Source: an uncultured Clostridia bacterium
GTDB taxonomy: Bacteria; Bacillota; Clostridia; Christensenellales; UBA1242
Length of the DNA stretch: 64,000 bases
Direction: 5' to 3'
Assembly: GCA_944383385.1 (NCBI GenBank)
Contig: CALWPI010000001.1
Span: 10,170 to 74,169, forward strand
Shown: piece after piece, positions 1,568-58,015 of the stretch
How the letters are laid out: the number at the start of each line of letters is the position of its first letter
How positions within the stretch are numbered: the stretch's first letter is position 1
The notes under the pieces: generated by a model
Databases searched by the model: none
The model's input: only the letters and a program-made list of their open reading frames with translations
Told to the model about the DNA's origin: nothing
Program-made: the position numbers and the translations under genes

Positions 1568-3733
1568 ATGAATGTTATTGAAGCCTTAATCACGTTTTTT
1601 AAGCAAATGGGCGAAAAATCTTGGGAGTATCAATTGTATGCTGCTGCTGGCATTTTGGTGCTCTTGTTACTTATCAGTCTCATTAGGTCTAACAGTTCTT
1701 ACGAAGTGAGATTGTTAAGGTCTGTTAATAGATTAAATAGGTTCTTTGCGAAGAATCCTAATGTTACAGCAGATAACTTGGTCGAACTAAACAATATGAT
1801 GAAAAGTGTTCCTAGTACGCTTCGTTATTGTTGGCAAGAATATTTGCTAAATCGTGACAAATTGCCAAGCGAATATATGAGTGCAAGAGAATGTGTTGAC
1901 CAACCTAGCAAAACTAGTAGTTATATGAACGCAACTAGTCATCTAAAATTATTCACAGTGGTTTCTAGTTTGCTATTATCACTTTTGAGTTTTGGTGCAG
2001 TTGCAGCAAAGGGGACAAGCACATTTGAGATTATGATTTCTGGCATTACTGTTCCTGCACTGCTTCTTGTATTTGGGTTGTTGTTTGTTGCCTTCATGGA
2101 GTCTAGACATACTGCCTTGATTGCTGATTTGTACTATTCTTATCATGAGTTTGAAAGAAATATAAACAAAGCATGTGGCACTTTGCCAGAATATATTGAT
2201 TATGAAATTCTCTTTACTAAGAAAGAAATCAAGCAAGGCATACCAGTCCTTCAAGAATATTTGGAAAAAATGGCTCTTCTCGAACAAAAGAAAAAGGAAG
2301 AAGAGGCATATACTTCATACGAATATGAACAATATGATTTTGAAAAATTGGGAGTTGACAATTCCTTACTTCTTGACCGTGCAATGCTTGAAAGCGAAAA
2401 ATATATTAATGTCAAAAGAAATCTAACTGACCGTATAAAAGCAAAAGAAGAAGAAAAAGCAAATTATCAAAAACAATTTGATGAAGTCACAAGAGAGTAT
2501 GAGAAAAAGACTCAAACAAGTAAGGAAACACTCAATCAGTTGTCAGAGCAAATGAGTAATACAACTGTCAAAATTGAGGCAAATTTCTTACGAAACAAAT
2601 ATGATACAGAACATCAAAAATTGCAACAATTGACTCGTGACTACGAAATGGCTCAATCACGTTTCCAACAAGAACAAGACCAATTCCAAGCAGAGATTGA
2701 TAGATACAATCAAGATATTGCAAAGAGAAAGGCAGCCGTTGAAGAGGCAATGATTGCAGAGTGCAAAAATTATGTCAACAAAGTTTACGGCAAGGTGACA
2801 GAAACCGTCGTTAGAGAGACAGAACCAGTCATGAAAGAACTTGAAGACAAAAAGATTGCACTAGAAGAAACTGTTGCAAAACTAGAAACAGATGTCGCAG
2901 ATAAGACTGCACAACAAGCACAAGCGCAAGAAAAACTTGAAACTCTTGAAAAAGAATATCAAACAAAAGTCGCAGAAATTGAAGGACTCAAACAAGTACG
3001 TGAATATTTCACATCATCTGAATTTATTAGTGCTGTCAAAGCAGGTAGAAAAGAAAAGGGTGAAGTTGTTGTCGATAGTAGTGCGAATAGTATGTCTGTT
3101 GAAGATAATGAAAAACTAATTGCTGCCATGAAACAACACGAAGAACTTGTACTAGAAAACGAAAAATTGAAGACAATGAATAATGAACTCAGCGAAGCAA
3201 ATGAAAAATTGTCAAATAGAAGTAGAGAGTTGTCTACCGAAATCAATAGTATGTATAAGACACAAAGTGAGTTGCAAGAAGAAAACAACAAGCTACAAAA
3301 AGAATATGCAAGCCTGTCGGAATCAATTTCTGACACAATTTCTGCATTAGCAGAAGGACAAGAAAAATTGGTTGCTATTACCGAGGCGCAAGTCGAAGCA
3401 GAAAATAAGGCTAAAACAACTGCTAAAAAGAGCACTGCAACCAAGAGTACAAAAACTAATAAGACGCCAAACACAGAAGTAAAAGAAGAACTAAAAGATA
3501 ATGCTATGAATGCGTACAACGAAGTTGATTCATTGAAAAAGTCATTGTCAAAACTCAAAAACACTGTTGATAAAGTAAAAGCGAATACATCAAGTCCTTT
3601 GACAGTTACAAGAAAAGCACGTGTCAAAGTGCAAACAAAAGCAAGCGCGCGTGAAAATCAAAATGAAGAAATTGACAAGAAACTAAAAAACATCGTGGCA
3701 AACAAAAACGGCGTTGATACAGAAAATAAATAA
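1568..3733 (+). CDS. Membrane protein of unknown function: three N-terminal TM helices, about 540 aa of coiled coil, and a K/T-rich tail
   Basis: GGGGAG SD before ATG 1568. Hydrophobic segments are AAAGILVLLLLISLI, LFTVVSSLLLSLLSFGAVAA and ITVPALLLVFGLLFVAFM. A long E/K/Q-rich heptad-like sequence follows, then AKTTAKKSTATKSTKTNKT near the C-terminus. An intrinsic terminator lies downstream. Confidence 0.7.
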   Translation: MNVIEALITFFKQMGEKSWEYQLYAAAGILVLLLLISLIRSNSSYEVRLLRSVNRLNRFFAKNPNVTADNLVELNNMMKSVPSTLRYCWQEYLLNRDKLPSEYMSARECVDQPSKTSSYMNATSHLKLFTVVSSLLLSLLSFGAVAAKGTSTFEIMISGITVPALLLVFGLLFVAFMESRHTALIADLYYSYHEFERNINKACGTLPEYIDYEILFTKKEIKQGIPVLQEYLEKMALLEQKKKEEEAYTSYEYEQYDFEKLGVDNSLLLDRAMLESEKYINVKRNLTDRIKAKEEEKANYQKQFDEVTREYEKKTQTSKETLNQLSEQMSNTTVKIEANFLRNKYDTEHQKLQQLTRDYEMAQSRFQQEQDQFQAEIDRYNQDIAKRKAAVEEAMIAECKNYVNKVYGKVTETVVRETEPVMKELEDKKIALEETVAKLETDVADKTAQQAQAQEKLETLEKEYQTKVAEIEGLKQVREYFTSSEFISAVKAGRKEKGEVVVDSSANSMSVEDNEKLIAAMKQHEELVLENEKLKTMNNELSEANEKLSNRSRELSTEINSMYKTQSELQEENNKLQKEYASLSESISDTISALAEGQEKLVAITEAQVEAENKAKTTAKKSTATKSTKTNKTPNTEVKEELKDNAMNAYNEVDSLKKSLSKLKNTVDKVKANTSSPLTVTRKARVKVQTKASARENQNEEIDKKLKNIVANKNGVDTENK

Positions 3734-9612: not shown

Positions 9613-10443
9613 ATGGCTATTAAAACATATAATCCAACATCACCTTCTCGTCGTTTCTATACAACAATTCAAACTGGTGAGATTACAAAAAAATCTCCAG
9701 AAAAGTCACTTTTGGTAGAAAAGAAAAAGAGTGCTGGTAGAAACAATCAAGGTAAAATTACCGTTAGACACATTGGTGGTGGAAATAGAGTAAAGTATAG
9801 GGTTATTGATTTCAAGAGAAACAAAGACAATATCCCTGCAAAAGTAGTTGGTATTGAGTATGACCCAAATCGTACAGCAAATATCGCACTATTAAATTAT
9901 GCCGATGGAGAAAAAAGATATATTCTTGCACCTATGGGACTCAATGTAGGTGACACTGTTATGAGTGGTAAAGAAAATGTTGAGATAAAAGCAGGTAACT
10001 GCTTGCCTCTCAGCGAAATGCCTGTCGGTATCGTTATCCACAATATTGAATTAAATCCTGGCAAGGGTGGACAATTGGTCCGTTCTGCTGGTATGGAAGC
10101 TCGTTTGATGGCAAAAGAAGGCAAATATGCTACTATCAAAATGCCTAGTGGCGAGATGAGAATGGTACTTGGCACATGCCGTGCTACCGTTGGACAAGTA
10201 GGAAACCTAGAACACGAACTTATGACACTTGGTAAAGCTGGTCGTAAACGTCATATGGGAGTTCGCCCAACAACTCGTGGTGCTGTTATGAACCCTGTTG
10301 ATCACCCACATGGTGGTGGTGAAGGTAAGAACCCTGTCGGTCGTAAGTCACCAATGACACCTTGGGGTAAACCTGCTCTTGGTCTAAAAACTAGAAATAG
10401 TAAAAAGCATAGTAACAGATTGATTGTTACTCGTGCAAAGTAG
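9613..10443 (+). CDS. rplB: 50S ribosomal protein L2
   Basis: [14 protein letters not shown] ... [15 protein letters not shown]. Confidence 0.98.
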
Positions 10444-23149: not shown

Positions 23150-23653
23150 ATGAAGAAGTTGAAAAGAGCAACAGACAAGAGATTAGCACTTGTTCGTGGA
23201 CTAGCAACTAGCCTTCTATGGTACGGTGAGATTGAAACTACAAAAGACAAAGCAAAAGCTGTTCAATCAGTTGCAGAAAAATTGTTGACAAAAGCAATTG
23301 CAACTCACAAAGATACCAAAAAGGTCACAAAGACTGTCGTTGATGACAAAGGCGTATCAGCACAAAAAGAAGTCATTGTTGACGGACCAAAGAAATTGGC
23401 TGCTAGACGTGCAATTATGGCTAAACTTTATGATATCCAAGAAGTAAGAGCAAACAAAGAGAGCAAAGATGACTTTGTTGCACGTACAAAAGATATCAAA
23501 CATCCATTGATTGAAAAAATATTCAATGAGTATGCTCCAAAATATGAAAATAGAGCAAACGAACTTGGAATTGGTGGGGGATATACAAGAATATTGAACC
23601 TAGGACCAAGAAAAGGCGACAATGCTCAAATGGTAAAAATTCAATTATTGTAG
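23150..23653 (+). CDS. rplQ: 50S ribosomal protein L17 (long form, 167 aa)
   Basis: [21 protein letters not shown] ... [25 protein letters not shown]. Confidence 0.93.
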
Positions 23654-23783: not shown

Positions 23784-26700
23784 ATGATAAAAAGAGTTTT
23801 AGGTGTTGTTGTAACCTTAATCTTATCATTTTTCTTATTTGCTTGTGATGAAGTGAATAATGATGAAACGTTTTCATTATCTTTTGAAAATGACAATGTT
23901 ATTGTAGACTTGAATACAAACTATGATTTAGATGCTTTGAATAATATTATAATAAGTTCTGGTTATTCCAATTATATATTAAATTATAGCGTATCCAATA
24001 CAAATATTGCTGAAATTATTGATAATACCTTTTATCCAAAAGCAGTCGGTAGAGTAGATGTCACAGTAAATTGCGATTTTCAAGGCGAAATGTACGAAGA
24101 TATATGTCATGTAGAAATACAAGATAATTCAATCAATAATTGTTACTTTGAACAAAAATCATTAGATGTAAATGTTTCTAACATGACAGTAGATGACACT
24201 ATTTCAATATATAATCGATTTGTTATTGAAAGCGACAAAGACAAACACACAATACAAACGGTATATAAAAATGATAATGGTGAGTTTTTATATGATAATG
24301 ATTATGTTTCATACAATTATGATACGGGTGAAATAAGGTTAATAAAAATTGATAAAAACATTACTCAAATTGAGATAGGTGTATATGTGTACACTTCTTT
24401 TGATGAACACGAATTTTATTCATTTGTGCTAAAATTTGAATATGATGTATATTCGACTATGTTGGGCGTTTCACATACGGAAATTCATAGTAAAATAAAT
24501 GAGCCACAAACATTCAAGATTTTGTTTGATAAGGGAACAACAATGTTGCCAAGTATTAGTTTAGACGACAACATATCTTATAAACTACTTGAAACTGGTA
24601 ATGATTATCAAACTTATGAAATCATATCTAGTATTAGTGGTGAATATACAATAAGTGTTGACATACCAAGTAAAAACAATCTAAAACAAACAATCAAATA
24701 TTTTGTACAAGATAAGGCAATGCTCAATAATTTGTCAATAAATTATAATGAAGCAATATTTACTAATCAAAAATATATTTTATCTTTTGACTCAAATATT
24801 GATTTGGATACATCTAAAATAACTATAAAAGATTATTGGACATTTGATGACAACGCAATATCTAGTAACATTGGTACATTTGTGAGTAAGAATGATTTGT
24901 CATATTCATACTCAATAAGTTGTTCAAATGCAGGTAGTCATAAAATAGTTGTTGAATATTTGGATGAGTATGGAAACTATTCTAATGCTATATCATTAGA
25001 AATAGAATTTGAAGTTTATGAACTTGCGACAAACATCAATACACAAATTTATAATCAATCTAATACACTTGTAGACACGCAAGAAATTACTTTGACGCTA
25101 ATTGATAACACAAGAGAAGAAAATATTGAACTTGCAACAGCAGACAATCTAAACACAAGTTGTTATGTTGTTGCTCAAAGTGATGTTGCTCATCCTTTTG
25201 GAAATATTACTTATAGTCAAGTAGGGCAAAGTATTAGCGTAAGTAGTATTGACAACAAATATGTTGTAGAACCAATCAGTGTTGGGACAAGCACAATAAC
25301 TTTTATGATAAACAATGTTGTTAAAACTATAACAATCAATGTCGATATGAGCAAATATACAAATGTTCATCTTGACAAACAAGAATATGAATTATTACCA
25401 AATAGTTCACAAACAATAGTTGTGGAGTATTTACCACAATATGCCTATGACAAATCAAGTAGTATTTACATTGAAGATACATCAATTGCAGTTTTAGAAG
25501 AAAATATATTGCATTATGTATCAAGTGGTAATACAAATATTATATTTGAAAATAGAGTAGTTGCTGCGATAAATTGTGTGGCAATTATTGATGATGTAGT
25601 ATTTGACAAAGGTAATCAAAGTATTGAAGCAATACCAGGTAAACAAATAGAGATAAATTGTAGATTTTTCTGTCAAGGCAATGCAGTTGTTGTGCCAATT
25701 GATATAGTGTCTAATGGGGTTGTAATAAGTACGTCAAAATATCTTGATAACATTTTCCAATTGATATTCTATGTGTCCAGTCAAGAAACGTCTTATATCA
25801 CATTAGTCAATAAAGATACAAATAGTGACATAATCACAATAGATATTGTCACAAAACCCGAAATAATTACAAATCTTGATGTGACATATGAAGATGTGTT
25901 GATATATCAAGAAGGACTTATTTTTGAACCACAAGTGACTGTTACTTCAAACTATGGCGTAGTCGACAGCAGTCGAGTTACAATGACGGAAAAGAACGGC
26001 AAATGCACAATAAATGATTTGCAAGCAAAGATTGAAGATGTGGGCATTTATAACTTTGTGTTTACTATTGATGATTTTATAAAAGAAATTGAGATAATGG
26101 TCATTCCACAAGATATAGAACAAAATGCGATTGTAAGAACAAGTGCAGAATTTGTGTATGCACTTGAAAATAATTTGCCAGTGTATCTAGCGAACGATAT
26201 TATCTTGGACAACGAAAATGTGATAACTAGTTCATACTCAAACACTATTTCTAGTTTGGGTAGTACTCTATGTACTATTACATTAAATTCAACTCTTATT
26301 GAAACATTACAAAACGAAGCAAAGATAAGTAATGTCAACATTTTGTTGCCAAATACTATTGATGTACAAGGGTATATAGCAAAAAACAATTTTGGTATAA
26401 TTGAAAATATTAATATCACAAATGAAGCAGTCGACTTGTCAAATGACGCAACTCTAATTTGTTGTAACAACTATGGAACAATATCAGGAATTTCTACAAA
26501 ACTTGATATACAAGCGTACAATTTTGATTTTGCAACTATTTGCTATATGAACCAAGGATTGATTAAAAAATGTACTTTGGACTTGAATATATCAGGCTCG
26601 TCCAATATTTCTGGTGTCACATATATGAGTGACATTTCAAATAAGGAAATCTTCCCAACAATTGACGATATGGTTATTGATATTGTAATAAATTATAGTG

Positions 26701-26987
26701 GCAATGATTCCAATTATAGTGCATGTGGCATACTTTGTTCTGCTGGTGGGAGAGTGTCGAGTAGTACAAGCCACACAATATTGTCCAATATTACTTTGAA
26801 TTTTTCCTACAATTCCAGCAATGTATCAAATATATATGTTGTAGCAAAGACAATGAGTTCTTCTCATGAAATGCACGATTGTAATATATTTGTAAATGAG
26901 AGAGATAATGTACTAAATATTATCCAAACATTAAAATATTTGTCTTCTTCATATCAGACAGACAATAAACTTACATTTTTACAATAA
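23784..26987 (+). CDS. Large surface lipoprotein (1067 aa) with Big_2-like Ig repeats and a GLUG/beta-helix-like C-terminal module
   Basis: The track ORF starts at 23727, but ATG 23784 gives the lipoprotein signal MIKRVLGVVVTLILSFFLFA|C. Big_2-like signatures include VSNTNIAEIIDNTFYPKAVGRVDVTV, IDNKYVVEPISVGTSTITF and IEDTSIAVLEENILHYVSSGNTNIIF. The C-terminus reads IVRTSAEFVYALENNLPVYLANDIIL ... IAKNNFGIIENINIT ... CCNNYGTISG ... ICYMNQGLIKKC. Confidence 0.75.
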   Translation: MIKRVLGVVVTLILSFFLFACDEVNNDETFSLSFENDNVIVDLNTNYDLDALNNIIISSGYSNYILNYSVSNTNIAEIIDNTFYPKAVGRVDVTVNCDFQGEMYEDICHVEIQDNSINNCYFEQKSLDVNVSNMTVDDTISIYNRFVIESDKDKHTIQTVYKNDNGEFLYDNDYVSYNYDTGEIRLIKIDKNITQIEIGVYVYTSFDEHEFYSFVLKFEYDVYSTMLGVSHTEIHSKINEPQTFKILFDKGTTMLPSISLDDNISYKLLETGNDYQTYEIISSISGEYTISVDIPSKNNLKQTIKYFVQDKAMLNNLSINYNEAIFTNQKYILSFDSNIDLDTSKITIKDYWTFDDNAISSNIGTFVSKNDLSYSYSISCSNAGSHKIVVEYLDEYGNYSNAISLEIEFEVYELATNINTQIYNQSNTLVDTQEITLTLIDNTREENIELATADNLNTSCYVVAQSDVAHPFGNITYSQVGQSISVSSIDNKYVVEPISVGTSTITFMINNVVKTITINVDMSKYTNVHLDKQEYELLPNSSQTIVVEYLPQYAYDKSSSIYIEDTSIAVLEENILHYVSSGNTNIIFENRVVAAINCVAIIDDVVFDKGNQSIEAIPGKQIEINCRFFCQGNAVVVPIDIVSNGVVISTSKYLDNIFQLIFYVSSQETSYITLVNKDTNSDIITIDIVTKPEIITNLDVTYEDVLIYQEGLIFEPQVTVTSNYGVVDSSRVTMTEKNGKCTINDLQAKIEDVGIYNFVFTIDDFIKEIEIMVIPQDIEQNAIVRTSAEFVYALENNLPVYLANDIILDNENVITSSYSNTISSLGSTLCTITLNSTLIETLQNEAKISNVNILLPNTIDVQGYIAKNNFGIIENINITNEAVDLSNDATLICCNNYGTISGISTKLDIQAYNFDFATICYMNQGLIKKCTLDLNISGSSNISGVTYMSDISNKEIFPTIDDMVIDIVINYSGNDSNYSACGILCSAGGRVSSSTSHTILSNITLNFSYNSSNVSNIYVVAKTMSSSHEMHDCNIFVNERDNVLNIIQTLKYLSSSYQTDNKLTFLQ

Positions 26988-26992
26988 TTATT

Positions 26993-27015
26993 AAAAGGTC
27001 TTATAGACCTTTTTT
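26993..27015 (+). terminator. Intrinsic terminator
   Basis: aggtc-ttata-gacct followed by T5. Confidence 0.75.
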
Positions 27016-27063: not shown

Positions 27064-27092
27064 TTGACACAAAAAAATTATATATATATAAT
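27064..27092 (+). promoter_or_regulatory. Consensus sigma-A promoter of the 2412-aa gene
   Basis: TTGACA (27064-27069), 17-nt spacer, TATAAT (27087-27092). A second extended -10, TGgTATACT, lies at 27109-27117. Confidence 0.6.
27079..27090. repeat. (TA)6 dinucleotide repeat spanning the spacer and -10 of that promoter; core of the 18-bp palindrome aattatatatatataatt
   Basis: Direct reading. Confidence 0.95.
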
Positions 27093-27145
27093 TAAAATAG
27101 TTAATATTTGGTATACTACTTTTGTAGGCTCAAATAGGAGTAAAA

Positions 27146-30100
27146 ATGGGAAAAATTTTTAAGGTATTAGGATATGTCTTTTTAGGGTTATTCATACTCG
27201 CACTTGGAGTAGTTGGGTTTCTCTATTTTAGTGGGGCATTCAATGATAATAAGATTGAATTGGACACTATTGCTTTTGAAATTGACGCAGACAATATGGA
27301 AAACATTGAGTCAATGCTTATTGGTGGGCAAGAGACTTTGATTGTCACAGACGATATTCAAATGACGATAGGTTACACTCCATCAAATGCGACAAGCAAA
27401 ACTATCAATTTGAGAGTAAAAGCAGGACAAGATTTTATAAGTGTTCCAAGTCAAGTCATTGCAGGAGAACCATTTACTATACATATTGATAAAGAAAATG
27501 AAAATTATGGTGGAACAGTCATCATATCTGCCGCCGATGTTAAAGGACAAACAAAGGTAGACAAAGACTTGATATTTGTTGTTGACCGTCCAGTAGAAGA
27601 TTTGACATTATTCAATTTTGCAAATGAGGTTGGTGTGAGTGATAGTGGACCAATAATTGCTTTTTCAAAAGAATTGTTGCCATTTCAATTAGAGAGCACA
27701 CCACTCAATGCACTCAATCCAAACTTGGCATCTAGTGAATTTGATACAAGCAAGTTTTTCAAAAATATCAAAGTTGAGTCACAAGACGCCTCAATAGTTG
27801 AAGTGGTAAAAAATGAAACAAATCCAACAGAAATAAATATTGCTAATAATAGTGTTTTACTCAATTATTATTTGCGTACTGTCAATAAAGGTACGGCAGA
27901 TGTTGTCGCAACAATGTTCCCAACATATATAATGGATGCTGACTATACTGCTACGAATTTTGAAAAATTTTTGGCAAGCGACCCACAATACATAATGTTT
28001 AGTACAATTGCAAACGATTGTGCAAAGTTTGTGACCAAATACAAAGATTATATTTTGAGTATTGAAGAACAAATTTATATGCCTTCTTTGGGTAAGTCAA
28101 TGAATGGGGAAGAACTCATCAATGAATTGACCAATAATGGAACGGTAGAAATATCTTTTACAACAGACAACCGTGGGGCAGACGTGTTCCAAGATGTATT
28201 ACAATTTATGCAAATAAAAGCGCAATACAGTGTGTCCGTTGTCATGGGAGAAGTAGATTCTATTTCCGTTGACACAAATAGCATTGATTGGATACTACAC
28301 AAAGATAATTCTGCACAACCATATACAATTGATTCTTTGGTAAGCACTTTTGGACTGACTATCAATCCAGAAAATGACAATAATAACCTTGATTCATTGC
28401 TATCAAGCATCAAAATAAATGCATTACTTGTAGATACGACTAATCACACATTTACATTTGAAAATTATGAAGACGACGCAACACTACAATCAATTATTGA
28501 TTTGTTAAATAATCCAGAAACAAATAGGTCAACCGGTATTGAGGGAAGAAGTAGTTTGTTCCCAGACTTTAAGGTAACTAATGACCCAGAAAATTATTTC
28601 ATAGACGGATATATGCATTATGAAAAGGCTGAATTTGTAGGCAACCATAGTGAGATACTTACAAATGGCATCTTTGGTGTCAAAGAAGAAATGCGTGGAG
28701 AAGAAAAAGTGTGGGTCATGACCTCATACAACCAAATTCCAGACGGAATGGAATTGTATTTACACTTCTCACTCGAAACAATAATGGCACATGAAGACCA
28801 AAATATCAATGTCATATATGAAACCATTGTTAAGGTAAATATATCTACCAATACTATTCCAGTTGATTCAAACATTTTGATACAAGGCTCAATACCTAGC
28901 GTACTTGTTACAAACGAAAGTGGTGTGTATTATAATGGCGTTATGGCCTATAATACTTACTCATCCGACATAGATTATGCAACACTATCAACTAGCGAAG
29001 GTATATCCGAATTTTCATATACAACTATGAGATATTTGGTCAAACAAAGCGAAGTCCAAAAAATTGAGACAAATGGAGAAACCCCTTGTATTGATGTAGT
29101 AAGAGACGGTCAAGGCAATATTGTTGCACACAGATTGAGCGACGGCGAGATATATTATGAAGTAAACAATAGTCGTAATGGCGTCCTAAATTTGAGAGCA
29201 ACAAACATTTCTCCATACGAAGTAGAACCAAGCAAAGTATATACAAATGCACATATATATTCTGTTATTATAAAAACTGACAGAGAAGGCAATCCAATCT
29301 ATGAAGAAGACGGTTCGTATATTGTCATTGCTAAAAAGATGTCCAATGATACTTTTGTTGTTCGAAGTTTTATTGATAATTTGTATTATTATTCTGCCAT
29401 CACAACACAAGAAGGACAAACAGACAAAACAACTTATGTTTTGAGAAATTACAATATTCCAGGGGACAGATTGGTCAATTATCCAATGGGAACAGGTGAT
29501 GACGTTACAAATGCACTTGTTTTACTAAATGATACCACACATACTGCAACATTATTTGACAGCGACCAAAGTAGTGGTGACCTAAATTATGATGAGATTG
29601 TGGCATATGTTGAGGCAAATCAAGGTAGTGTAGTCATAACGATAGACAAAAACGTTAATCCTATCATTAATGAAGAAATGAATTTTATAGTTCTCAACTA
29701 TATTATTGATTCTAATGGTAATATGTATTTGACTGATGACAACATGAGAGAAACTGAGGTTGTCAAATATAAGAGTGCACTTGATGATGAATATCCATAC
29801 CTTACATTCCAACCAGGTGTGGGAGAAGTCAGTCAAGAAGACATTGGTTCATATGTCCAAACAATTGTGTCAAAAGAAACAAGTGAAACGGGGAATATCA
29901 AATCATTTATCAGTCTAAAAGTCATTGCACTTCAAGACGACCAAATCGATATTAGATGTGTTGGCACAACAAATAATGTAGAAGATAGTTTGTTTATGTA
30001 TCCATTCTATATTGATTATGACAAGAGTGACACTGCACAAAATCTATTTGGATTCCAACATGCGCAAGCAACAGAAGAAGAGTATTACACATATGCATAT

Positions 30101-33100
30101 AGTGACAACTATGTCAGTGGAAATTTAGGCGAAGGCATTCAAAATATGCTAAAACTTCAAGCAAATAGTAATGGTCAAAATATTATTTGGCTTGTAAAAG
30201 ATAGCGCTGTGGATACAACAAATCTCACAAGTTCTATGGACTTTATTATATATGGACAAGATACAGATAGCACATATTATGGTCCTATACTATATCAATT
30301 AGACACATCAAAGGTAGATATTTCTCAACAAGGAAATGTTGAAAATTATTTACAAAATTTTGCACAAAGCACAGTTAGTGAATGGCAGATTAGTTATTAT
30401 GTCTCACAAACGGATGATATTGCTGATTTGAATAGTCTGGCATGGCAATCAACTTCGGTTGAGAATAACCCATACCTTACAATATCAAAAGATGTCAACC
30501 AAAATTATCATATGAATATTTTGCAAGGCACTCAACATGGCGTGTATATCAAACTGACAGTTACACTTTATAACTATGAACTGCCAAATGGCGTGACAAG
30601 CGATTATACATTTGATGGCATTAGTTATCAAATTGCAAAGAGATTCACTACATACATTGTCTTGTATCAAGACGAACCAGTAATCACACTGTATAGTCGT
30701 TTTGACGGAGAAGGTGATGGGGTTTTGAATGGTGGTACAGCTGATGAAGGCGAGTATCGCAATGTTACAGCAGGAGATACAGTGTCTCTTGTGGGTAGCC
30801 AAAACGAAAGTGATTATATTGTAGTAACCTTGTCCAACAAATCAATTATTTCTTCTGCCTATATGAACATAAATCTTGCTGATAGGTCAAAGATGATATT
30901 CTTAGCATACTATGGGGCAGGTAATAATGACAACCCAACCAGGACTTATGAAATAGACGGTACAAAACTTTTGAACAAGTTGGAACTAGAAATATTTGAC
31001 TCTGGCATTGATTCATCTGCCACCTTTACTGTAAGTGTTGCAGGCAAAACATCAATATACTATTTATCAATTACTAAAAACGTCAATATAACTATAAACG
31101 AGATGTCAGCAAATACAACAGGAAATTACAATGTTGAACAAGATAACAATGATTATTATGTTCTAAATGTCGAAGATACTGGGACAAAATCCACCCCAGT
31201 AAGATACGCTTTGAGTGAAATATTCTCAATGACAAAAATAAACGACGGGCAAAATGTTGATATTACGTTTGGCTTTGTCGACCAAGAAGATAGTGCAAAT
31301 GATTATTACAAAATACATACACTAAACGGTATACAATACTTGTATATTGGCAGAGTATTCAACACAATGACTTTTGATATAAATATTTCTTATAAATTGT
31401 CTAGTGAAGACACAGTCACGAGCACATATTATAAGACTATAAGGGTCAAGGTCAATCCAACAATTGCTGTAAGCATTGAAGGAGACTACAATAGTTCAAA
31501 TCCTTTGGATGTAGTGACCGGCGAAAATTATAATATTTACGAAAATGATACATATTATATTCACGGCACATATAACAACGCAGAAATGGACGTTGCAACC
31601 TTACTAAATTATGTAAATGTCAGTGTTGACAGAAATAGTATCAGTGCAGAAGATTTGGTTGCACTTGGTGGACTAAATATGTCCAGTGACAAAAAATCGA
31701 TTACATCAACATTTACAATCAAAAATGTCAACAATGTAAGATTTATTATTCAACTAGCACAAGCAACTGTTTCTATAAACGCTGATAGTATTAGTTTGAG
31801 TGCAAATTCTTATATCATGACAGATATGTCAATGTACTTTAATTTCAAACCAAATGTATCTTTTGTCGCAACGAACGGACAAGATAATAATAGTCAAGAA
31901 AATCCATACATTTTGCAAGATACTCAAATTGCAAGTACGGGCACACAAGGTGAGTTTGTATTGTTTGGAGAAGAAAATGATTTGATAAAATTTGTTGCAA
32001 CATATGGTGGACAACAAACTGATATTACCTTAAATGTAATTTCTTCAATTAGTTTAAGCAAAAAAGTGCTAAACGAAGACGGTTTGACATATAGTTGGGT
32101 AGCACTTGAAGACGGATATATTCAAGTTGTAGTAGACGACAACAAAGTCGTTATAAACAAATTGACTAGCGTAAATCAAGATATAGATATTAGAATCAAT
32201 TTTGAAAATCAATTTGGTGTAAATGCATATTATTATGTCACACTAAAAAGTGATGTGTTAATTAGAGCGCATTATCCAATTCTAGCAAATGGCGAAAATG
32301 TGGCAGTTGGTACAAGCATTGATTTGAACCAAGGCTATGCGCTATCCAACAATAGATTAGAAATCTATTTTAGTGACGGCACAACTCCAATTACTTATGC
32401 CTTTGACAAAACTTATCAACTATTTGCAGACCAAACACTTGCAAATACTATTGATACAAACGTTGCTGAAATATCTGCACAAGGCAAATTGTACGTAAAA
32501 CAAAGCATTAGTGATATTTATATTAAGGTGACATTGTCTTGTGGTTCTTATGCTATATATCATATTATTGTTGTGCCAGAAGGATTTAGTAGTGGTATTT
32601 CAAACACTACTCAAATCGTTAAGGCAAATCACGAATATACACTTGATGAATTGCTTGGCAATGCAAAATATGCTGCACTAAAAACTGCTGATGGCAAAGA
32701 AATAATAAGCCAAAGCACTTATACATTTGAAGAAACATATTCAGCAACCAAATACGAAGTCCAATTCTATGTCTACAATGATGATAGTTTGCAAAGCGAA
32801 GGGGAGAAGATTTATACATTCCAAGTAGAAAGGAATATAACAATCGTATCAAATACTGATTATAGCGAAATTGCTGCAAACAATGAATATCAATTGTATT
32901 ATACTAATGAAAGTGGCGAAAACTATATTTTGGCATTGACCAAAGATGACGGAACAAACGAGTATTTAGATGCATCAATGTTTACATATTCAACAAACAA
33001 TGAAAACATTGTTATCGCAGGAAATACTATAAAGTATAATGGCAATGTAAATAGCAATCAAAAAGTAACCATTACAGTAGAATATGAAGATTATATTATT

Positions 33101-34384
33101 GGGACAGTCAATGTTACAATTGTGCCAAATATCAAAAATTTGATAAAAGAAGACCTTTACAACTATACAGCACTTGCTAGTTATAATGTTATAAGTCCAG
33201 CCAGTGGTACAGGTACAATTTTGGTTAGTGAGTATAGTTCACCAACTAATTATATTGGTGAAGATATTGATGGAACACTTACTTACTCTATTGATAATTT
33301 ACCACAAGGAGTATCAATTAGTGGAGATGGTAATATTACATATCCAATAGTCAACAAAACAATCTCATTTGTTGTCACAGCAACAATTACTTGGAGAGAC
33401 GTTTCATATAGCGAAAAAGTGACAATATATGTTCAAAATAACCTTGACACAAATACTATCAAGACACCAACTATTAGTGTTGATGCTGGACAAGTGATAC
33501 CACTTGATGTTACTAGAACAGGAAACACCATTTCATTGGAAGGCAATGCATTATTTAGCCTAAGAAATGAAGGGGAGACAAACATTGTTTTAAGATTTGA
33601 TGAAATTGAAACAAGTGATTATAGTATAGTTAAAGATAGTGATGGAACATATAGTTTGTATGTCTACAATTCAAATAATACTAATGCAATTAAAATTAGT
33701 TACTATATTGATTTTATTGGAACAACAAGTGTTGATGAATGTTACAAAGACAACCTGACGTACTTCTATATTCAATTGAATACTGCAAGTGTTGTTGATG
33801 AAATTGCAATTAAAGACGGCAACGATAATGCAATTACGCTAGATACAAATGCTATACTACTAAATGACATTCTAAATATTGGTGATAATAATTCTTCAAT
33901 TTGGTATCATAGTGTTTATGCAAGTGACTCAAATGGTAATACTGACGGACACAAGATTGTTCAAAATGGCAACGAAACATATCTAGTATTTGCTTGTACA
34001 ACGGAAGAACAAGAGGTCGATATTAGATTGTATCCATATAGTGGAGCGACAAACTTTGTTACTATTACATTTACCGTTCCAGCATCTAATGCATTAGAAA
34101 ATGTTAATATTGACCTACAATATACCGGCAGTCCAATTGTACACGATTTAGAAAATGATTTTGTATTTATGGACAGTACAGGAACAACAGAATTTGACAA
34201 GTCAATATTTGATTATACTATTGAAAATGTTGCACCAGTAGGACAGATAACAGATTCTAACTTGAACGGAAGTATTCTAACTATTGACACATTGACGGCG
34301 ACAACTACGCTTGTTATAAATGTGACAGATGGTATAAACACATTTAGAATAATTATCAATATTACAGTAGCAACTACTGAATGA
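27146..34384 (+). CDS. Giant surface protein (2412 aa) with a single N-terminal membrane anchor and many Ig-like units; function unknown
   Basis: An AGGAG SD precedes ATG 27146. The N-terminal hydrophobic segment is VLGYVFLGLFILALGVVGFLYF. The protein is N/T/Y/I/D-rich, with recurring Ig-domain-end strands such as VTITVEYEDYIIGTVNVTIVPN, FVVTATITWRDVSYSEKVTIYVQNN, ATFTVSVAGKTSIYYLSITKNVNITI and TTLVINVTDGINTFRIIINITVA. I found no LPXTG or SLH motif. Confidence 0.8.
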   Translation: MGKIFKVLGYVFLGLFILALGVVGFLYFSGAFNDNKIELDTIAFEIDADNMENIESMLIGGQETLIVTDDIQMTIGYTPSNATSKTINLRVKAGQDFISVPSQVIAGEPFTIHIDKENENYGGTVIISAADVKGQTKVDKDLIFVVDRPVEDLTLFNFANEVGVSDSGPIIAFSKELLPFQLESTPLNALNPNLASSEFDTSKFFKNIKVESQDASIVEVVKNETNPTEINIANNSVLLNYYLRTVNKGTADVVATMFPTYIMDADYTATNFEKFLASDPQYIMFSTIANDCAKFVTKYKDYILSIEEQIYMPSLGKSMNGEELINELTNNGTVEISFTTDNRGADVFQDVLQFMQIKAQYSVSVVMGEVDSISVDTNSIDWILHKDNSAQPYTIDSLVSTFGLTINPENDNNNLDSLLSSIKINALLVDTTNHTFTFENYEDDATLQSIIDLLNNPETNRSTGIEGRSSLFPDFKVTNDPENYFIDGYMHYEKAEFVGNHSEILTNGIFGVKEEMRGEEKVWVMTSYNQIPDGMELYLHFSLETIMAHEDQNINVIYETIVKVNISTNTIPVDSNILIQGSIPSVLVTNESGVYYNGVMAYNTYSSDIDYATLSTSEGISEFSYTTMRYLVKQSEVQKIETNGETPCIDVVRDGQGNIVAHRLSDGEIYYEVNNSRNGVLNLRATNISPYEVEPSKVYTNAHIYSVIIKTDREGNPIYEEDGSYIVIAKKMSNDTFVVRSFIDNLYYYSAITTQEGQTDKTTYVLRNYNIPGDRLVNYPMGTGDDVTNALVLLNDTTHTATLFDSDQSSGDLNYDEIVAYVEANQGSVVITIDKNVNPIINEEMNFIVLNYIIDSNGNMYLTDDNMRETEVVKYKSALDDEYPYLTFQPGVGEVSQEDIGSYVQTIVSKETSETGNIKSFISLKVIALQDDQIDIRCVGTTNNVEDSLFMYPFYIDYDKSDTAQNLFGFQHAQATEEEYYTYAYSDNYVSGNLGEGIQNMLKLQANSNGQNIIWLVKDSAVDTTNLTSSMDFIIYGQDTDSTYYGPILYQLDTSKVDISQQGNVENYLQNFAQSTVSEWQISYYVSQTDDIADLNSLAWQSTSVENNPYLTISKDVNQNYHMNILQGTQHGVYIKLTVTLYNYELPNGVTSDYTFDGISYQIAKRFTTYIVLYQDEPVITLYSRFDGEGDGVLNGGTADEGEYRNVTAGDTVSLVGSQNESDYIVVTLSNKSIISSAYMNINLADRSKMIFLAYYGAGNNDNPTRTYEIDGTKLLNKLELEIFDSGIDSSATFTVSVAGKTSIYYLSITKNVNITINEMSANTTGNYNVEQDNNDYYVLNVEDTGTKSTPVRYALSEIFSMTKINDGQNVDITFGFVDQEDSANDYYKIHTLNGIQYLYIGRVFNTMTFDINISYKLSSEDTVTSTYYKTIRVKVNPTIAVSIEGDYNSSNPLDVVTGENYNIYENDTYYIHGTYNNAEMDVATLLNYVNVSVDRNSISAEDLVALGGLNMSSDKKSITSTFTIKNVNNVRFIIQLAQATVSINADSISLSANSYIMTDMSMYFNFKPNVSFVATNGQDNNSQENPYILQDTQIASTGTQGEFVLFGEENDLIKFVATYGGQQTDITLNVISSISLSKKVLNEDGLTYSWVALEDGYIQVVVDDNKVVINKLTSVNQDIDIRINFENQFGVNAYYYVTLKSDVLIRAHYPILANGENVAVGTSIDLNQGYALSNNRLEIYFSDGTTPITYAFDKTYQLFADQTLANTIDTNVAEISAQGKLYVKQSISDIYIKVTLSCGSYAIYHIIVVPEGFSSGISNTTQIVKANHEYTLDELLGNAKYAALKTADGKEIISQSTYTFEETYSATKYEVQFYVYNDDSLQSEGEKIYTFQVERNITIVSNTDYSEIAANNEYQLYYTNESGENYILALTKDDGTNEYLDASMFTYSTNNENIVIAGNTIKYNGNVNSNQKVTITVEYEDYIIGTVNVTIVPNIKNLIKEDLYNYTALASYNVISPASGTGTILVSEYSSPTNYIGEDIDGTLTYSIDNLPQGVSISGDGNITYPIVNKTISFVVTATITWRDVSYSEKVTIYVQNNLDTNTIKTPTISVDAGQVIPLDVTRTGNTISLEGNALFSLRNEGETNIVLRFDEIETSDYSIVKDSDGTYSLYVYNSNNTNAIKISYYIDFIGTTSVDECYKDNLTYFYIQLNTASVVDEIAIKDGNDNAITLDTNAILLNDILNIGDNNSSIWYHSVYASDSNGNTDGHKIVQNGNETYLVFACTTEEQEVDIRLYPYSGATNFVTITFTVPASNALENVNIDLQYTGSPIVHDLENDFVFMDSTGTTEFDKSIFDYTIENVAPVGQITDSNLNGSILTIDTLTATTTLVINVTDGINTFRIIINITVATTE

Positions 34385-45316: not shown

Positions 45317-45667
45317 GGGGGCGACTGGTTTCGACGGGTCAAGATAGTTTGGTTTAGCACGAGGTAGGCTCGACTACCATAAAACGGAAATTAAATTTAA
45401 TTGCAGATTACAATTCTGTACCAGTTGCTGCTTAATTTAGCGTAATGCAACTTGTCTACATTCTGGACCGACGACAGATTGTGGGCATTAGTTAGTCGGC
45501 ACCTGTTGTGTATGATTTCTATAATATGCAATGGATTTTATAGGACGAATATGTGTGAGTTTGTATGCACTGCAACATATATTTGAAAAATAAGTGTGTA
45601 CTAATCGTGTAGAAGGACTGAGTGATTCTTTTCTCGGACGCGGGTTCAATTCCCGCCGCTTCCACCA
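45317..45667 (+). ncRNA. ssrA: tmRNA (SsrA)
   Basis: The 5' end is GGGGGCGACTGGTTTCGACGGG. The 3' end is GGACGCGGGTTCAATTCCCGCCGCTTCCACCA. The tag ORF ends ...GCA GAT TAC AAT TCT GTA CCA GTT GCT GCT TAA (45403-45435), giving a likely tag of ADYNSVPVAA; the resume codon is uncertain. Confidence 0.92.
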
Positions 45668-45709: not shown

Positions 45710-46918
45710 ATGGAAATATTTTTAGATATTCTTGGAGTATTGGCAATTGTTGGTATAGGTAGTTTGGTTGTTATATTGATTGCTGAGTTTTTGATTTCAT
45801 TATTCGATAAACACCAAGGCGTTTTCTTCAATCGTGCAAAGAAAGAAAAAAAAGTTGTTGAAGAAGTGCCAAATGATAATGTGAATATGGCAACAACATC
45901 AGCATACATACCTTATACTTATGAAGAACCAAAGGCAGAAGTCGTTGACACAACTGTTAACGAACAAAAAGCAAAAGAAGAGGAAAAACTTCTCGCTGAA
46001 CAGGACGATTTTGATGAGGATGAGGACGAAGAAGACCCAGAGTTTTTGGCACTTATGGACAGCATCCATAGTGAAGCACTCGCTCAAAAGACAGAGGAGC
46101 CAGTCAAAGTAGAACCTGTTGTTGAAGAAAAGGTTGAAGAAAAAGTAGAGCCAATTGAGCCAAAGGTCATTGTTGTAAAACAAGAAGTGAGAAAAGATGA
46201 CAGTGCCGAAGTCAAAAGATTACGTGAATTGCGCACATCTATTCTAACCAAGAAAAAAGCATCACAAGACCTTGAAAAAGCAAATAACGAAGAACTTGCA
46301 AAGAGAATGCAAGAACTAAACGAACTCAAAGCATATAAGATTCAATCTCGACAAAATATTATTAAACTCAAAGCTGAAACACTAGAAGAAATCCAAAAAC
46401 AACAAGACGAAAATGATGAATTGCGTAAAGAAGTTGCAAAACTCAAAAAACAAACTTCATCAAAACCTTATTTTACACGCGAATATTACGAAGAAAAGAA
46501 AGTAAAAATCGAAGCAGATATTGCCGAAGCAGAAAAAGAACTCAAAGTAAATAAGAGAGAATATTTGCCATTAAAGAGAGTGCAAAGAGCATACGAAAGA
46601 GATAGTGAAAAACTACGCAAAAAAGAGATTTCTGTTGCAAAACAAAAAATCAGTTTGTATGGTGTAGGTTCTGCAAAAGCAGTTGATGCCGAAAAGAAAC
46701 AAAAACTTGATGATGAAGTCAAATTGTTGAACGAATTGAAAGACAGTGTATTTAGTTGTGAACAAGTATTGAAAACAAATAAAGATAGACTATCAGCACT
46801 TGAAAAGACAAACAAAGTCTTGACAAGACAACTAGACAAACTCAACGCAGACTATACATCAGTCAAAGAAGCAATTGCTTGGTATGACAAAAACGCTTCT
46901 GGTAATGATAAGAAATAA
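45710..46918 (+). CDS. Single-pass membrane protein with an acidic linker and a long K/E-rich coiled coil; function unknown
   Basis: GGGGGA SD. The N-terminal TM is MEIFLDILGVLAIVGIGSLVVILIAEFLI, followed by the acidic run EQDDFDEDEDEEDPEF and then heptad-like K/E sequence to the end. Confidence 0.7.
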   Translation: MEIFLDILGVLAIVGIGSLVVILIAEFLISLFDKHQGVFFNRAKKEKKVVEEVPNDNVNMATTSAYIPYTYEEPKAEVVDTTVNEQKAKEEEKLLAEQDDFDEDEDEEDPEFLALMDSIHSEALAQKTEEPVKVEPVVEEKVEEKVEPIEPKVIVVKQEVRKDDSAEVKRLRELRTSILTKKKASQDLEKANNEELAKRMQELNELKAYKIQSRQNIIKLKAETLEEIQKQQDENDELRKEVAKLKKQTSSKPYFTREYYEEKKVKIEADIAEAEKELKVNKREYLPLKRVQRAYERDSEKLRKKEISVAKQKISLYGVGSAKAVDAEKKQKLDDEVKLLNELKDSVFSCEQVLKTNKDRLSALEKTNKVLTRQLDKLNADYTSVKEAIAWYDKNASGNDKK

Positions 46919-51568: not shown

Positions 51569-52012
51569 ATGAAAACAGTTATGACAAATGCTCAAACTGT
51601 GGAAAGAGAGTGGTTGTTAGTAGACGCTGCCAATATTCCACTAGGAAGAGTCGCTAGTCAAGTTGCTGCTATCCTTCGTGGAAAGCACAAACCTACATAC
51701 ACTCCACATTTTGATGCAGGAGATTATGTAATAGTAATTAATACAGACAAAATGGTCCTTACTGGAAACAAAATGGAAGAAAAATTGTATCGCCATTATT
51801 CAGGATATCCAGGTGGATTAAAAGAAATCTCATACAAAGACCTTATGGCAAATCGTAGTGATTTCGCACTAGAAGTTGCAGTAAAGGGAATGTTGCCAAA
51901 GAACTCATTGGGACGTCAAATGTTCACAAAACTACATTGCTACAAAGGTGCAACACATCCTCATACAGCACAAAAACCAAGAAAAATTGAAATCAAGGGG
52001 GAAGTTAGATAA
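51569..52012 (+). CDS. rplM: 50S ribosomal protein L13
   Basis: [36 protein letters not shown]. Confidence 0.97.
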
Positions 52013-57749: not shown

Positions 57750-58015
57750 CCGTACTAGGCGGGGAGCTAGTAGTGCCCTGTATCCGAAATCTACTATAGC
57801 GGAGCCGAATGCCTATTGAGGGTGGTTAGTCGGTAATATTTTGCATATAATGTTGTCGTTGAGTTCAAGGTCTTATGCAATAATCTGCTATGAAACATGT
57901 CAGGTTCGGAAGAAAGCAGCATTAAGTAGATTTGGTTATGTGATGTAAGGTAACTTTGAAGGAGATAATTATTATGTGCGAATATTGCTGGACACGCACG
58001 AGATAGGATGTACGG
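57750..58015 (+). ncRNA. ffs: Signal recognition particle RNA, large Bacillus type with Alu domain (scRNA)
   Basis: ggcggggagctagtagtgccctgtatcc matches the B. subtilis scRNA Alu region. catgtcaggttcggaagaaagcagcattaagt matches the domain IV core. The 5' ccgtac pairs with the 3' gtacgg, and a T-run follows. Confidence 0.9.

Follow-up and report, generated by a model that had tools for sequence, protein, structure and literature searches.

What kind of protein is encoded by a gene of more than 7 kb whose product matches no known domain, and where in the cell does that product act? The question is raised by a giant gene in a 64,000-nucleotide (nt) stretch of DNA (hereafter the window) from an uncultured Clostridia bacterium (GenBank assembly GCA_944383385.1, contig CALWPI010000001.1, forward-strand positions 10,170 to 74,169). 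An earlier note, made by a model from the sequence alone, had described the 2412-amino-acid (aa) product as an N-terminally anchored stalk of perhaps twenty or more divergent immunoglobulin (Ig)-like domains, with its distal end at the C-terminus. Following a computational analysis of the locus, we lean towards a related description, namely an acidic, N-terminally anchored surface fibre of ~265 kDa with a conserved base and a strain-variable distal shaft, made by what is probably a gut Christensenellales-like Clostridium. The coordinates, length and peptides quoted in the earlier note are all present: the eight peptides read there as strand pairs and the C-terminus INITVATTE are located at aa 141, 249, 1292, 1410, 1791, 1974, 2075, 2387, and 2404. 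The open reading frame (ORF) is a real, intact gene, because its 90% cluster comprises 13 full-length alleles (2411–2413 aa, 97–100% identical) from independent assemblies and because the ratio of nonsynonymous to synonymous divergence (dN/dS) against two other strains is 0.10–0.14 over aa 1–1200. The corresponding range for aa 1201–1900 is 0.10–0.17, and the part with low dN/dS (aa 1–1900) makes up ~80% of the protein.

The first step towards an answer concerns the attachment of the protein. Windows of 19 aa with a Kyte–Doolittle hydropathy above 1.6 start at residues 1–15 only and none lies beyond residue 33, which confirms the single N-terminal transmembrane (TM) or signal-anchor segment of the earlier note and the lack of anything hydrophobic after it. 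The stretch of aa 7–28, preceded by K3 and K6, agrees with the sequence signature of a type II (N-in, C-out) membrane protein, namely one hydrophobic N-terminal helix of about 20 or more residues with positive charges on its N-terminal side. In an alignment of 13 sequences sharing only 22–31% identity, G24 never changes and K6, G30, and F32 hardly do. A retained anchor is favored because G24, G30, and F32 are conserved across deep lineages, and the segment probably acts as a signal-anchor that escapes cleavage and keeps the N-terminus on the cytoplasmic side. The ectodomain, which would account for ~265 kDa, is acidic (isoelectric point 4.2, D + E 321 vs. K + R 133) with six cysteines, and among its residues N, T, I, S, V, D, and Y are abundant. 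Other means of attachment were sought throughout the protein. A bacterial lipobox ([LVI][ASTVI][GAS]C) was not found in this protein, nor was a C-terminal LPXTG-type motif, which the C-termini of its relatives lack as well; the only LPXTG-like strings are internal (aa 456 and 2017) and represent chance matches. Pfam and NCBIfam searches returned no wall-binding module of the SLH, CWB2, SH3b, LysM, GW, or choline-binding type. The C-terminus likewise proved to be free of a sorting signal, as had been stated before, since it contains neither a hydrophobic segment nor a sortase motif. These results support N-terminal anchoring with nearly the whole protein outside the cell.

The alternative that survives best is that the same segment acts as a cleavable Sec signal peptide, with the mature protein released or held non-covalently at the wall; it would then be a matrix protein, a coat of the S-layer kind, or a fibre that is secreted. 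The N-terminus is indeed arranged in the n-h-c order of Gram-positive signal peptides and offers a possible S-G-A / F site at aa 29–32, and the strong promoter described below is also typical of coat proteins. A precedent is provided by the Giant1-5 proteins of Apilactobacillus kunkeei, which carry a Sec signal peptide and occur in the supernatant (PMC12863079). However, the hydrophobic stretch extends over ~22 residues, the residues G24, G30, and F32 are kept in very divergent lineages while an A-x-A-type site is not conserved, and no SLH, CWB2, SH3b, DUF5776, or other wall-binding domain was detected. A cleaved and secreted form is therefore considered unlikely, though it retains more weight than any other competing explanation.

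Having placed the N-terminus, the next question is whether the ectodomain is indeed a uniform array of Ig-like units. The region closest to the membrane consists of two domains which are conserved across the whole superfamily, with support from phmmer and BLAST. The first of these carries the motif P-x-N-A-T-(N/S)-K-T, more fully P-x-N-A-T-N-K-T-L ... V-P ... A-G-x-x-F ... G-G, and its form 'P-x-N-A-T-N-K-T-L ... V-x-V-P ... A-G' presumably resembles the Big_2 signature, which is treated here as a lead and not as membership. The following conserved, non-repetitive region is colinear in the relatives of ~2500 aa, and a low-confidence AlphaFold2 model places ~10 helices in aa 236–460. Homologous repetition is clearest further out: with a five-sequence profile, hhalign identifies tandem units at aa 1813–1897, 1898–1996, and 1997–2099 (self-hits with E-values of 6e-4 and 1e-3; unit 2 vs. 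unit 3, E 4e-5), each of which ends in a strand pair of the '...V.V.I.PN' type. A weaker relative of these units lies near aa 1292–1442 (E 1e-3). A search with a hidden Markov model (HMM) of the three units revealed no other clear copies; the strongest additional match lay near aa 1278–1363 of the relative P0005 (E 0.038).

A broader similarity between units was assessed by comparing 12 putative units, i.e., the two N-terminal domains and ten segments across aa 1292–2412, profile against profile and with column-shuffled controls. The mean score was 14.3 as opposed to 10.3 for the controls, and 30 of the 66 real pairs exceeded the 95th percentile of the null distribution vs. 4 of 66 null pairs (Mann–Whitney P 1e-11). 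As column shuffling also removes generic strand periodicity, the excess points to a shared beta-rich modular character rather than to proven homology. Windows over aa 263–1291 barely exceed their controls (11.6 vs. 9.7), and for aa 263–365, 675–777, and 881–1086 the similarity to the units is not above that of the shuffled controls. When the AlphaFold2 half-models were searched with Foldseek, the C-terminal half matched 218 PDB chains at E ≤ 1e-3, and among the matches listed almost all are multi-Ig, cadherin, FN3, or S-layer proteins, while the N-terminal half matched 0 PDB chains at the same threshold. Both models are of low confidence and for this reason the matches of the C-terminal half are suggestive, a hint only.

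Profile libraries do not place the units in any described family. Pfam returned 0 families at E ≤ 1 for the whole protein, PF02368 (Big_2) included, and NCBIfam gave no match. Across 123 overlapping 160-aa pieces from four family members, 89 Pfam families appeared at E ≤ 0.5, which is about the chance expectation, and no Ig-type family recurred in more than two pieces (PKD_5 2, AgI_II_C2 2, Fn3_Dep-1 1). Membership in the Ig-like Pfam families (Big_2 PF02368 and relatives, fn3, Cadherin, PKD) was accordingly not found for this protein. Sequence and profile searches of the PDB yielded nothing significant, the best matches being 2l0d for the N-terminal module (E 0.024) and a VHH domain for a repeat unit (E 0.44). 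Self-BLASTP found no internal repeats in the protein, and a search for tandem and direct repeats found no meaningful ones in the gene, in agreement with the earlier observation that long exact DNA repeats are missing. Chou–Fasman and hydrophobic-moment profiles were tried as well and proved too crude for the delimitation of domains.

Taken together, the idea of many Ig-like units is supported only in part, by the three tandem units at aa 1813–2099 and by the weak similarity of segments of the C-terminal half to one another and to the first ectodomain; aa 263–365, 675–777, and 881–1086 gave no signal of this kind. Similarly, of the proposed stalk of at least twenty beta-sandwich domains, repeated beta-rich units were recovered only in the membrane-proximal pair and in approximately aa 1290–2412. 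Rather than a uniform Ig stalk, the protein is better described as a conserved, partly non-Ig base, comprising the helix, two domains, and a region of mixed alpha/beta character, which leads into a modular shaft rich in beta-strands.

How widespread is this arrangement? An exhaustive HMMER search with aa 1–1200 against 1.84 billion representatives recovered 12 relatives, all traced to uncultured Christensenellales-like Clostridia, so that the restriction to a narrow clade envisaged in the earlier note is borne out. A word-indexed search returned the giant protein itself and P0002 (60% identity, locus L001) only, and a profile of the N-terminal module recovered a single fragment. P0002 is an orthologue lying in the same gene order. 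Three further relatives, P0003, P0004, and P0005 (2492–2546 aa), are colinear over nearly the whole length at 22–25% identity; aa 3–881 align to them at ~25% identity in both BLASTP and phmmer. Beyond these the shared part shrinks, as P0039 (2075 aa) has only the first ~400 aa in common and proteins of at least 1400 aa encoded after rplQ in related metagenome-assembled genomes (MAGs) only the first ~230 aa (hhalign of the N-terminal module against this MAG family: probability 95.6%, E 1e-8, aa 1–229). The giant protein follows the pattern of the whole family, in which a homologous helix and two domains (aa 1–230) precede 1400–2550 aa without known domains; Pfam domains were not found in the relatives either. 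As judged from these alignments, the conserved element of the superfamily is the N-terminal module of helix and two domains. No relative was found among GTDB species representatives or JGI metagenome contigs, and a phage origin was rejected, a tblastn search of 50,697 phage records giving no match.

The host itself can be placed through its SecY, which is at most 65–67% identical to that of any GTDB species representative. On account of this, the source is an undescribed Christensenellales-like lineage. Its SecY is best matched by MAGs that bear the labels uncultured Clostridia or Christensenella and derive from human (Hadza), sheep, and other samples; these relatives make a gut habitat probable. 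The alleles P0018 and P0020 were recovered from assemblies whose ENA accessions are close to that of the assembly with the 23%-identity lineage P0004 (ERZ16268183, ERZ16268218, and ERZ16268247); a study or habitat common to the source species and the P0004 lineage is suggested.

Within this narrow family the giant protein changes rapidly and unevenly. Its identity to the L001 orthologue is 60%, as opposed to 97% for rpoA, 94% for L17, and 87% for the MurJ-like protein; the giant protein evolves far faster than its neighbours. Identity to P0002 declines from 70–79% over aa 1–800 to 38–50% over aa 2100–2412. The same polarity is found within the species, where 74 of the 114 polymorphic sites fall in aa 1901–2412 (odds ratio 7.9, P 5e-25), 66 of them in aa 1901–2300 and 8 in the last 112 aa. 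These counts leave out one allele, P0025, from a 7.8-kb ENA contig, whose last ~90 residues are unrelated to every other allele and which is probably an assembly chimera at the contig edge. The polymorphism in aa 1901–2300 takes the form of mosaic blocks common to subsets of strains, and synonymous divergence (dS) is 0.13–0.22 there compared with 0.02–0.035 elsewhere. Mosaic blocks with raised dS indicate that divergent segments have been imported by recombination, together with weaker constraint in this zone. The identity gradient and the focus of polymorphism in aa 1901–2300 also lend support to the earlier proposal that the C-terminus is the distal end.

With the arrangement and variation of the protein in hand, the question of its expression and setting can be addressed. 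A terminator-like hairpin separates the upstream lipoprotein gene from the giant gene, and a promoter, a ribosome-binding site, and a second hairpin follow in the expected order (Table 1). The sequence from the -35 element to the ATG is almost identical in L001, the relative with 60% identity, and identical in two other strains; more widely, 8 of 9 lineages carry TTGAC(A/T)-17/18-TATAAT at a distance of 80–142 nt before the start codon. By these signals the giant gene is predicted to be its own transcription unit with a near-consensus promoter and terminators. The promoter spacer (27070–27086), in which an A7 run is combined with a (TA)6 tract, looks like a phase-variation switch. Phase variation via this (TA)n/A7 spacer was rejected, the tract length being identical in four genomes of two species, and the tract appears to be fixed at the optimal 17-nt spacing. 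The leader further contains a heptamer which takes the form CATACTA in 7 of 11 lineages (L001, L083, L084, L085, L015, L010, and L014) and directly precedes the ribosome-binding site in L015, L010, and L014.

This box and the location of the gene raise a second alternative, in which the protein is sporulation-associated, made in the forespore or mother cell, and destined for the spore envelope or the gap that separates the two membranes of the spore. In four lineages, the giant gene is directly followed by spoVT, a murJ-like gene, and hup, and in a fifth, that of P0039, one small gene intervenes. This holds although the upstream flank varies: in the window it is formed by rplQ and the lipoprotein gene, in other lineages by lepA-hemN, to which an ankyrin gene may be added. 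CATACTA presumably matches the -10 consensus of forespore sigma-G promoters, and its conservation would agree with such a role. The sigma-G reading is nevertheless not supported here and was rejected: a -35 element is not conserved, a match at the right spacing being present in only one box-bearing lineage, and in three lineages the box directly adjoins the ribosome-binding site, an implausible place for a -10 element. In addition, the giant gene is equipped with a terminator of its own, a consensus sigma-A-type promoter precedes it in 8 of 9 lineages, the related gene of the distant MAG family follows rplQ, with spoVT not found in the ~560 nt available downstream of it, and strain-level recombination of the distal part better fits exposure on vegetative cells. 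A spore function consequently seems improbable.

The variable distal part could also be taken as the mark of a contact-dependent or polymorphic toxin-delivery protein, or of a carrier of an unrecognised tip enzyme. Such a protein would be large, surface-located, and variable towards its C-terminus, as is the case here, and none of the domains of the giant protein can be annotated. Yet the last 112 residues, where a toxin would be expected to vary, vary less within the species than any other part of the distal region. A hypervariable stretch in the last 110 aa was considered and rejected, its appearance being due solely to the chimeric allele P0025. No immunity gene follows, as the downstream gene is spoVT and not immunity-like, and no toxin, peptidase, or pre-toxin domain was detected. 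We regard this explanation as very improbable. Weakest of all is the proposal that the ORF arose as an artefact of annotation or assembly or represents a pseudogene in decay, which could point to the lack of known domains and to the aberrant end of P0025 but is effectively refuted by the allele set, whose twelve remaining full-length members come from independent assemblies, and by a dN/dS of 0.1–0.25, and is further opposed by the colinear ~2500-aa homologues at 22–25% identity and by the ribosome-binding site, promoter, and terminators of the gene.

A surface fibre thus remains the preferred reading of the giant protein, and several results weigh against it. The two AlphaFold2 half-models, each computed from a two-sequence alignment, reach a mean predicted local distance difference test (pLDDT) score of only 28.8 and 35.4, and the fold of every part is inferred. 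No adhesive-function, enzyme, or anchor domain was detected by Pfam, NCBIfam, or PDB searches or in the 123 pieces, as the earlier note had already stated from the sequence. The codon adaptation of the gene is merely average (0.69, compared with 0.69–0.83 for ribosomal proteins); as a proxy for expression this value was discarded as uninformative, and it does not support high expression. Finally, dN/dS in aa 1901–2300 is 0.25–0.29 against 0.10–0.17 elsewhere, which is still below 1, so that positive selection is not demonstrated.

With these reservations, a course of events can be proposed for the fibre. The gene would be expressed as a single transcription unit from a near-consensus housekeeping-type promoter, and the protein would be inserted through the Sec pathway by means of its uncleaved N-terminal signal-anchor, leaving the N-terminus inside the cell. 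The conserved base would come next, formed by the two membrane-proximal domains and a mixed alpha/beta region reaching to approximately aa 880, followed by an extended modular shaft, for the most part of beta-strands and composed, at least in part, of divergent ~100-aa units, and by a free C-terminal end projecting from the cell. The base would be held under purifying selection, whereas recombination would swap aa 1901–2300 of the distal shaft among strains, in line with what exposure to ligands, phages, or host immunity would lead one to expect. The location outside the cell, the fold as beta-sandwiches, and the fibre shape are all inferred, and on this footing a role in attachment or spacing at the cell surface is likely.

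Table 1. Coordinates of the giant gene, its signals, and the segments of its product (window positions; position 1 is the first nucleotide of the window).
Feature	Position	Strand	Remarks
Upstream neighbour, 1067-aa lipoprotein gene, lipobox LFAC	23784..26987	+	Separate transcription unit, lineage-specific
Terminator-like hairpin after the upstream lipoprotein gene	26993..27013	+	9-bp stem, 3 G-C pairs, then T run
Predicted sigma-70-type promoter TTGACA-17-TATAAT	27064..27092	+	12/12 consensus matches
TATACTA box, 5' leader	27112..27118	+	CATACTA in most relatives
Ribosome-binding site AGGAG	27136..27140	+	5 nt before the ATG; read from the sequence, conserved in relatives
Giant-protein coding sequence	27146..34384	+	ATG start, 2412 aa, stop codon included
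Single hydrophobic segment, aa 7–28	27164..27229	+	Kyte–Doolittle hydropathy; K3 and K6 precede it
Two membrane-proximal domains, aa 64–260	27335..27925	+	Conserved across the whole superfamily (alignment); phmmer and BLAST support
Conserved non-repetitive region, aa 261–880	27926..29785	+	Colinear in ~2500-aa relatives
Three tandem homologous units, ~85–105 aa each, aa 1813–2099	32582..33442	+	hhalign
Strain-variable zone, aa 1901–2300	32846..34045	+	Mosaic blocks
C-terminal end, aa 2301–2412	34046..34381	+	Less polymorphic, without sorting signal or hydrophobic segment
Terminator-like hairpin and T run after the stop codon	34401..34413	+	Sequence

The surroundings of the gene are those of a core chromosomal region, and its codon usage and GC content at third codon positions are native, being the same as in the surrounding genes. 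On the upstream side lie the S10/spc/alpha ribosomal operons with secY, adk, map, rpoA, and rplQ, followed by the 1067-aa lipoprotein gene. The downstream order is spoVT, a MurJ/SpoVB-like flippase gene, hup, dus, pgk, tpi, gpmI, secG, rnr, smpB, and tmRNA, and further on typA, rplM, glmM, the signal recognition particle (SRP) RNA, ileS, and groEL. No Pfam or NCBIfam match was found for the upstream lipoprotein, whose sole detectable homologue is the syntenic L001 gene at 40% identity; its evolution is therefore faster still than that of the giant gene. Repeats of the N-x-G-x-I/C type abound in its C-terminal third and suggest a beta-helix. A relationship between this lipoprotein and the post-rplQ proteins of other lineages was considered and rejected, none being found.

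Some further observations concern the arrangement of the region. After rplQ (23150–23653) the Bacillus-type order ecfA-ecfA'-ecfT-truA-rplM-rpsI is missing, and rplM (51569–52012) is found 28 kb downstream. Across the clade, the slot after rplQ holds fast-evolving surface-protein genes (L006–L021, L084, and L085). The tmRNA gene (45317–45667) adjoins smpB, and a large, Bacillus-type SRP RNA is encoded at 57750–58015; both score well above the Rfam gathering thresholds. Two ORFs of the window, 1568–3733 (+, 721 aa) and 45710–46918 (+, 402 aa), remained without a Pfam match; their products contain hydrophobic segments, either N-terminal or internal. The P0003 lineage has another large ORF beyond its two hup genes (L084, 21103–27312), which is cut off by the contig end after at least 2070 aa and starts with a signal-like segment; an all-against-all phmmer comparison at E ≤ 0.01 detected no similarity between its product and the giant protein.

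How does the giant protein compare with known surface proteins? The comparison with sortase-anchored adhesins rests on established knowledge and on the introduction of one study (PMC12863079). Within the bounds of these sources, the giant protein resembles MSCRAMM, SasG/Aap, and serine-rich repeat proteins in having a long beta-rich modular stalk which would hold the distal part off the cell, and it resembles sortase-anchored adhesins generally in being acidic, fast-evolving, and variable between strains. Sortase adhesins have a cleaved N-terminal signal, a distal N-terminal binding domain, and C-terminal fixing to the wall through LPXTG. The polarity of the giant protein is reversed, with hydrophobic fixing at the N-terminus and a free C-terminus, and in contrast to these adhesins it has neither LPXTG nor G5, Big, SSURE, or Cna_B Pfam repeats.

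The A. kunkeei Giant1-5 proteins are described in the same study as having highly imperfect internal repeats, with strains diversifying by short intragenic recombination (PMC12863079). The giant protein is similar in being a very large, orphan-like surface protein of a small Firmicute genome with the same recombination pattern, here at aa 1901–2300. The A. kunkeei proteins reach 3000–8000 aa and combine a cleaved Sec signal peptide, an N-terminal beta-solenoid, and C-terminal DUF5776/SH3b-like wall-binding domains with the lack of a TM segment (PMC12863079), whereas the giant protein has a hydrophobic N-terminal segment and no DUF5776 match. Sequence similarity to the Giant1-5 proteins was not detected, and by these features the giant protein would not belong to that family. 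Giant proteins of Omnitrophota, which exceed 30,000 aa and contain many TM regions as well as SecA-like, peptidase, and carbohydrate-active domains, are comparable in being metagenome-derived, mostly extracellular, and largely unannotatable by HMMs, and fragment-wise structure prediction was needed in that study, too, for domains to be found (10.1101/2023.11.21.568195). They represent a different class, since the giant protein shows none of their size, multi-TM, SecA-like, or enzymatic features.

Two further comparisons can be made. Big_2-type arrays, such as those of intimin/invasin and of phage tail and decoration proteins, presumably share with the giant protein units of ~90–105 aa ending in strand pairs; unlike these arrays, it gives no match to PF02368 at E ≤ 1, and a recurring Big family was absent from the matches of the 123 segments at E ≤ 0.5. 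A likeness to Sap and EA1 of Bacillus anthracis is suggested by Foldseek matches to the C-terminal half-model with a pLDDT of 35 (9g93_A, E 3e-7; 8opr_A, E 1e-5), and the S-layer proteins of B. anthracis, as the giant gene, are associated with strong-promoter expression. Sap and EA1 are attached by SLH domains and form lattices, whereas SLH was not detected in the giant protein, which is three times longer.

In kind, therefore, the giant protein is ordinary, a giant modular surface protein, while its family is new, rare, and undescribed. Its interest lies in this new family, in the reversed polarity of anchoring, and in the clear evolutionary pattern of base versus tip. It also illustrates the limits of annotation, as 2412 residues are left without an HMM or PDB sequence match, homologues are too few for AlphaFold, and the word-indexed homology search missed relatives that were recovered by exhaustive HMMER. 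Clostridia of the Christensenellales type are widespread gut bacteria, mostly uncultured, whose surface biology is almost unknown. Here, 7.2 kb of a small, low-GC genome are spent on one giant gene which is kept intact across strains. Because the gene is intact, its promoter is near-perfect, and recombination is concentrated at the exposed end, the giant protein is likely to be a main interface with hosts, phages, or partner microbes. More tentatively, it may represent an undescribed type of Gram-positive fibre in which a conserved base module, embedded in the membrane, formed by the helix, two domains, and an alpha/beta region, and restricted to the clade, carries a lineage-specific shaft of 1400–2500 aa with a shuffled distal part. 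If so, the fibre could be what chiefly determines how cells of this clade attach to one another or to a host, as when they aggregate with partner organisms, and it might be regulated through the conserved CATACTA element of its leader.

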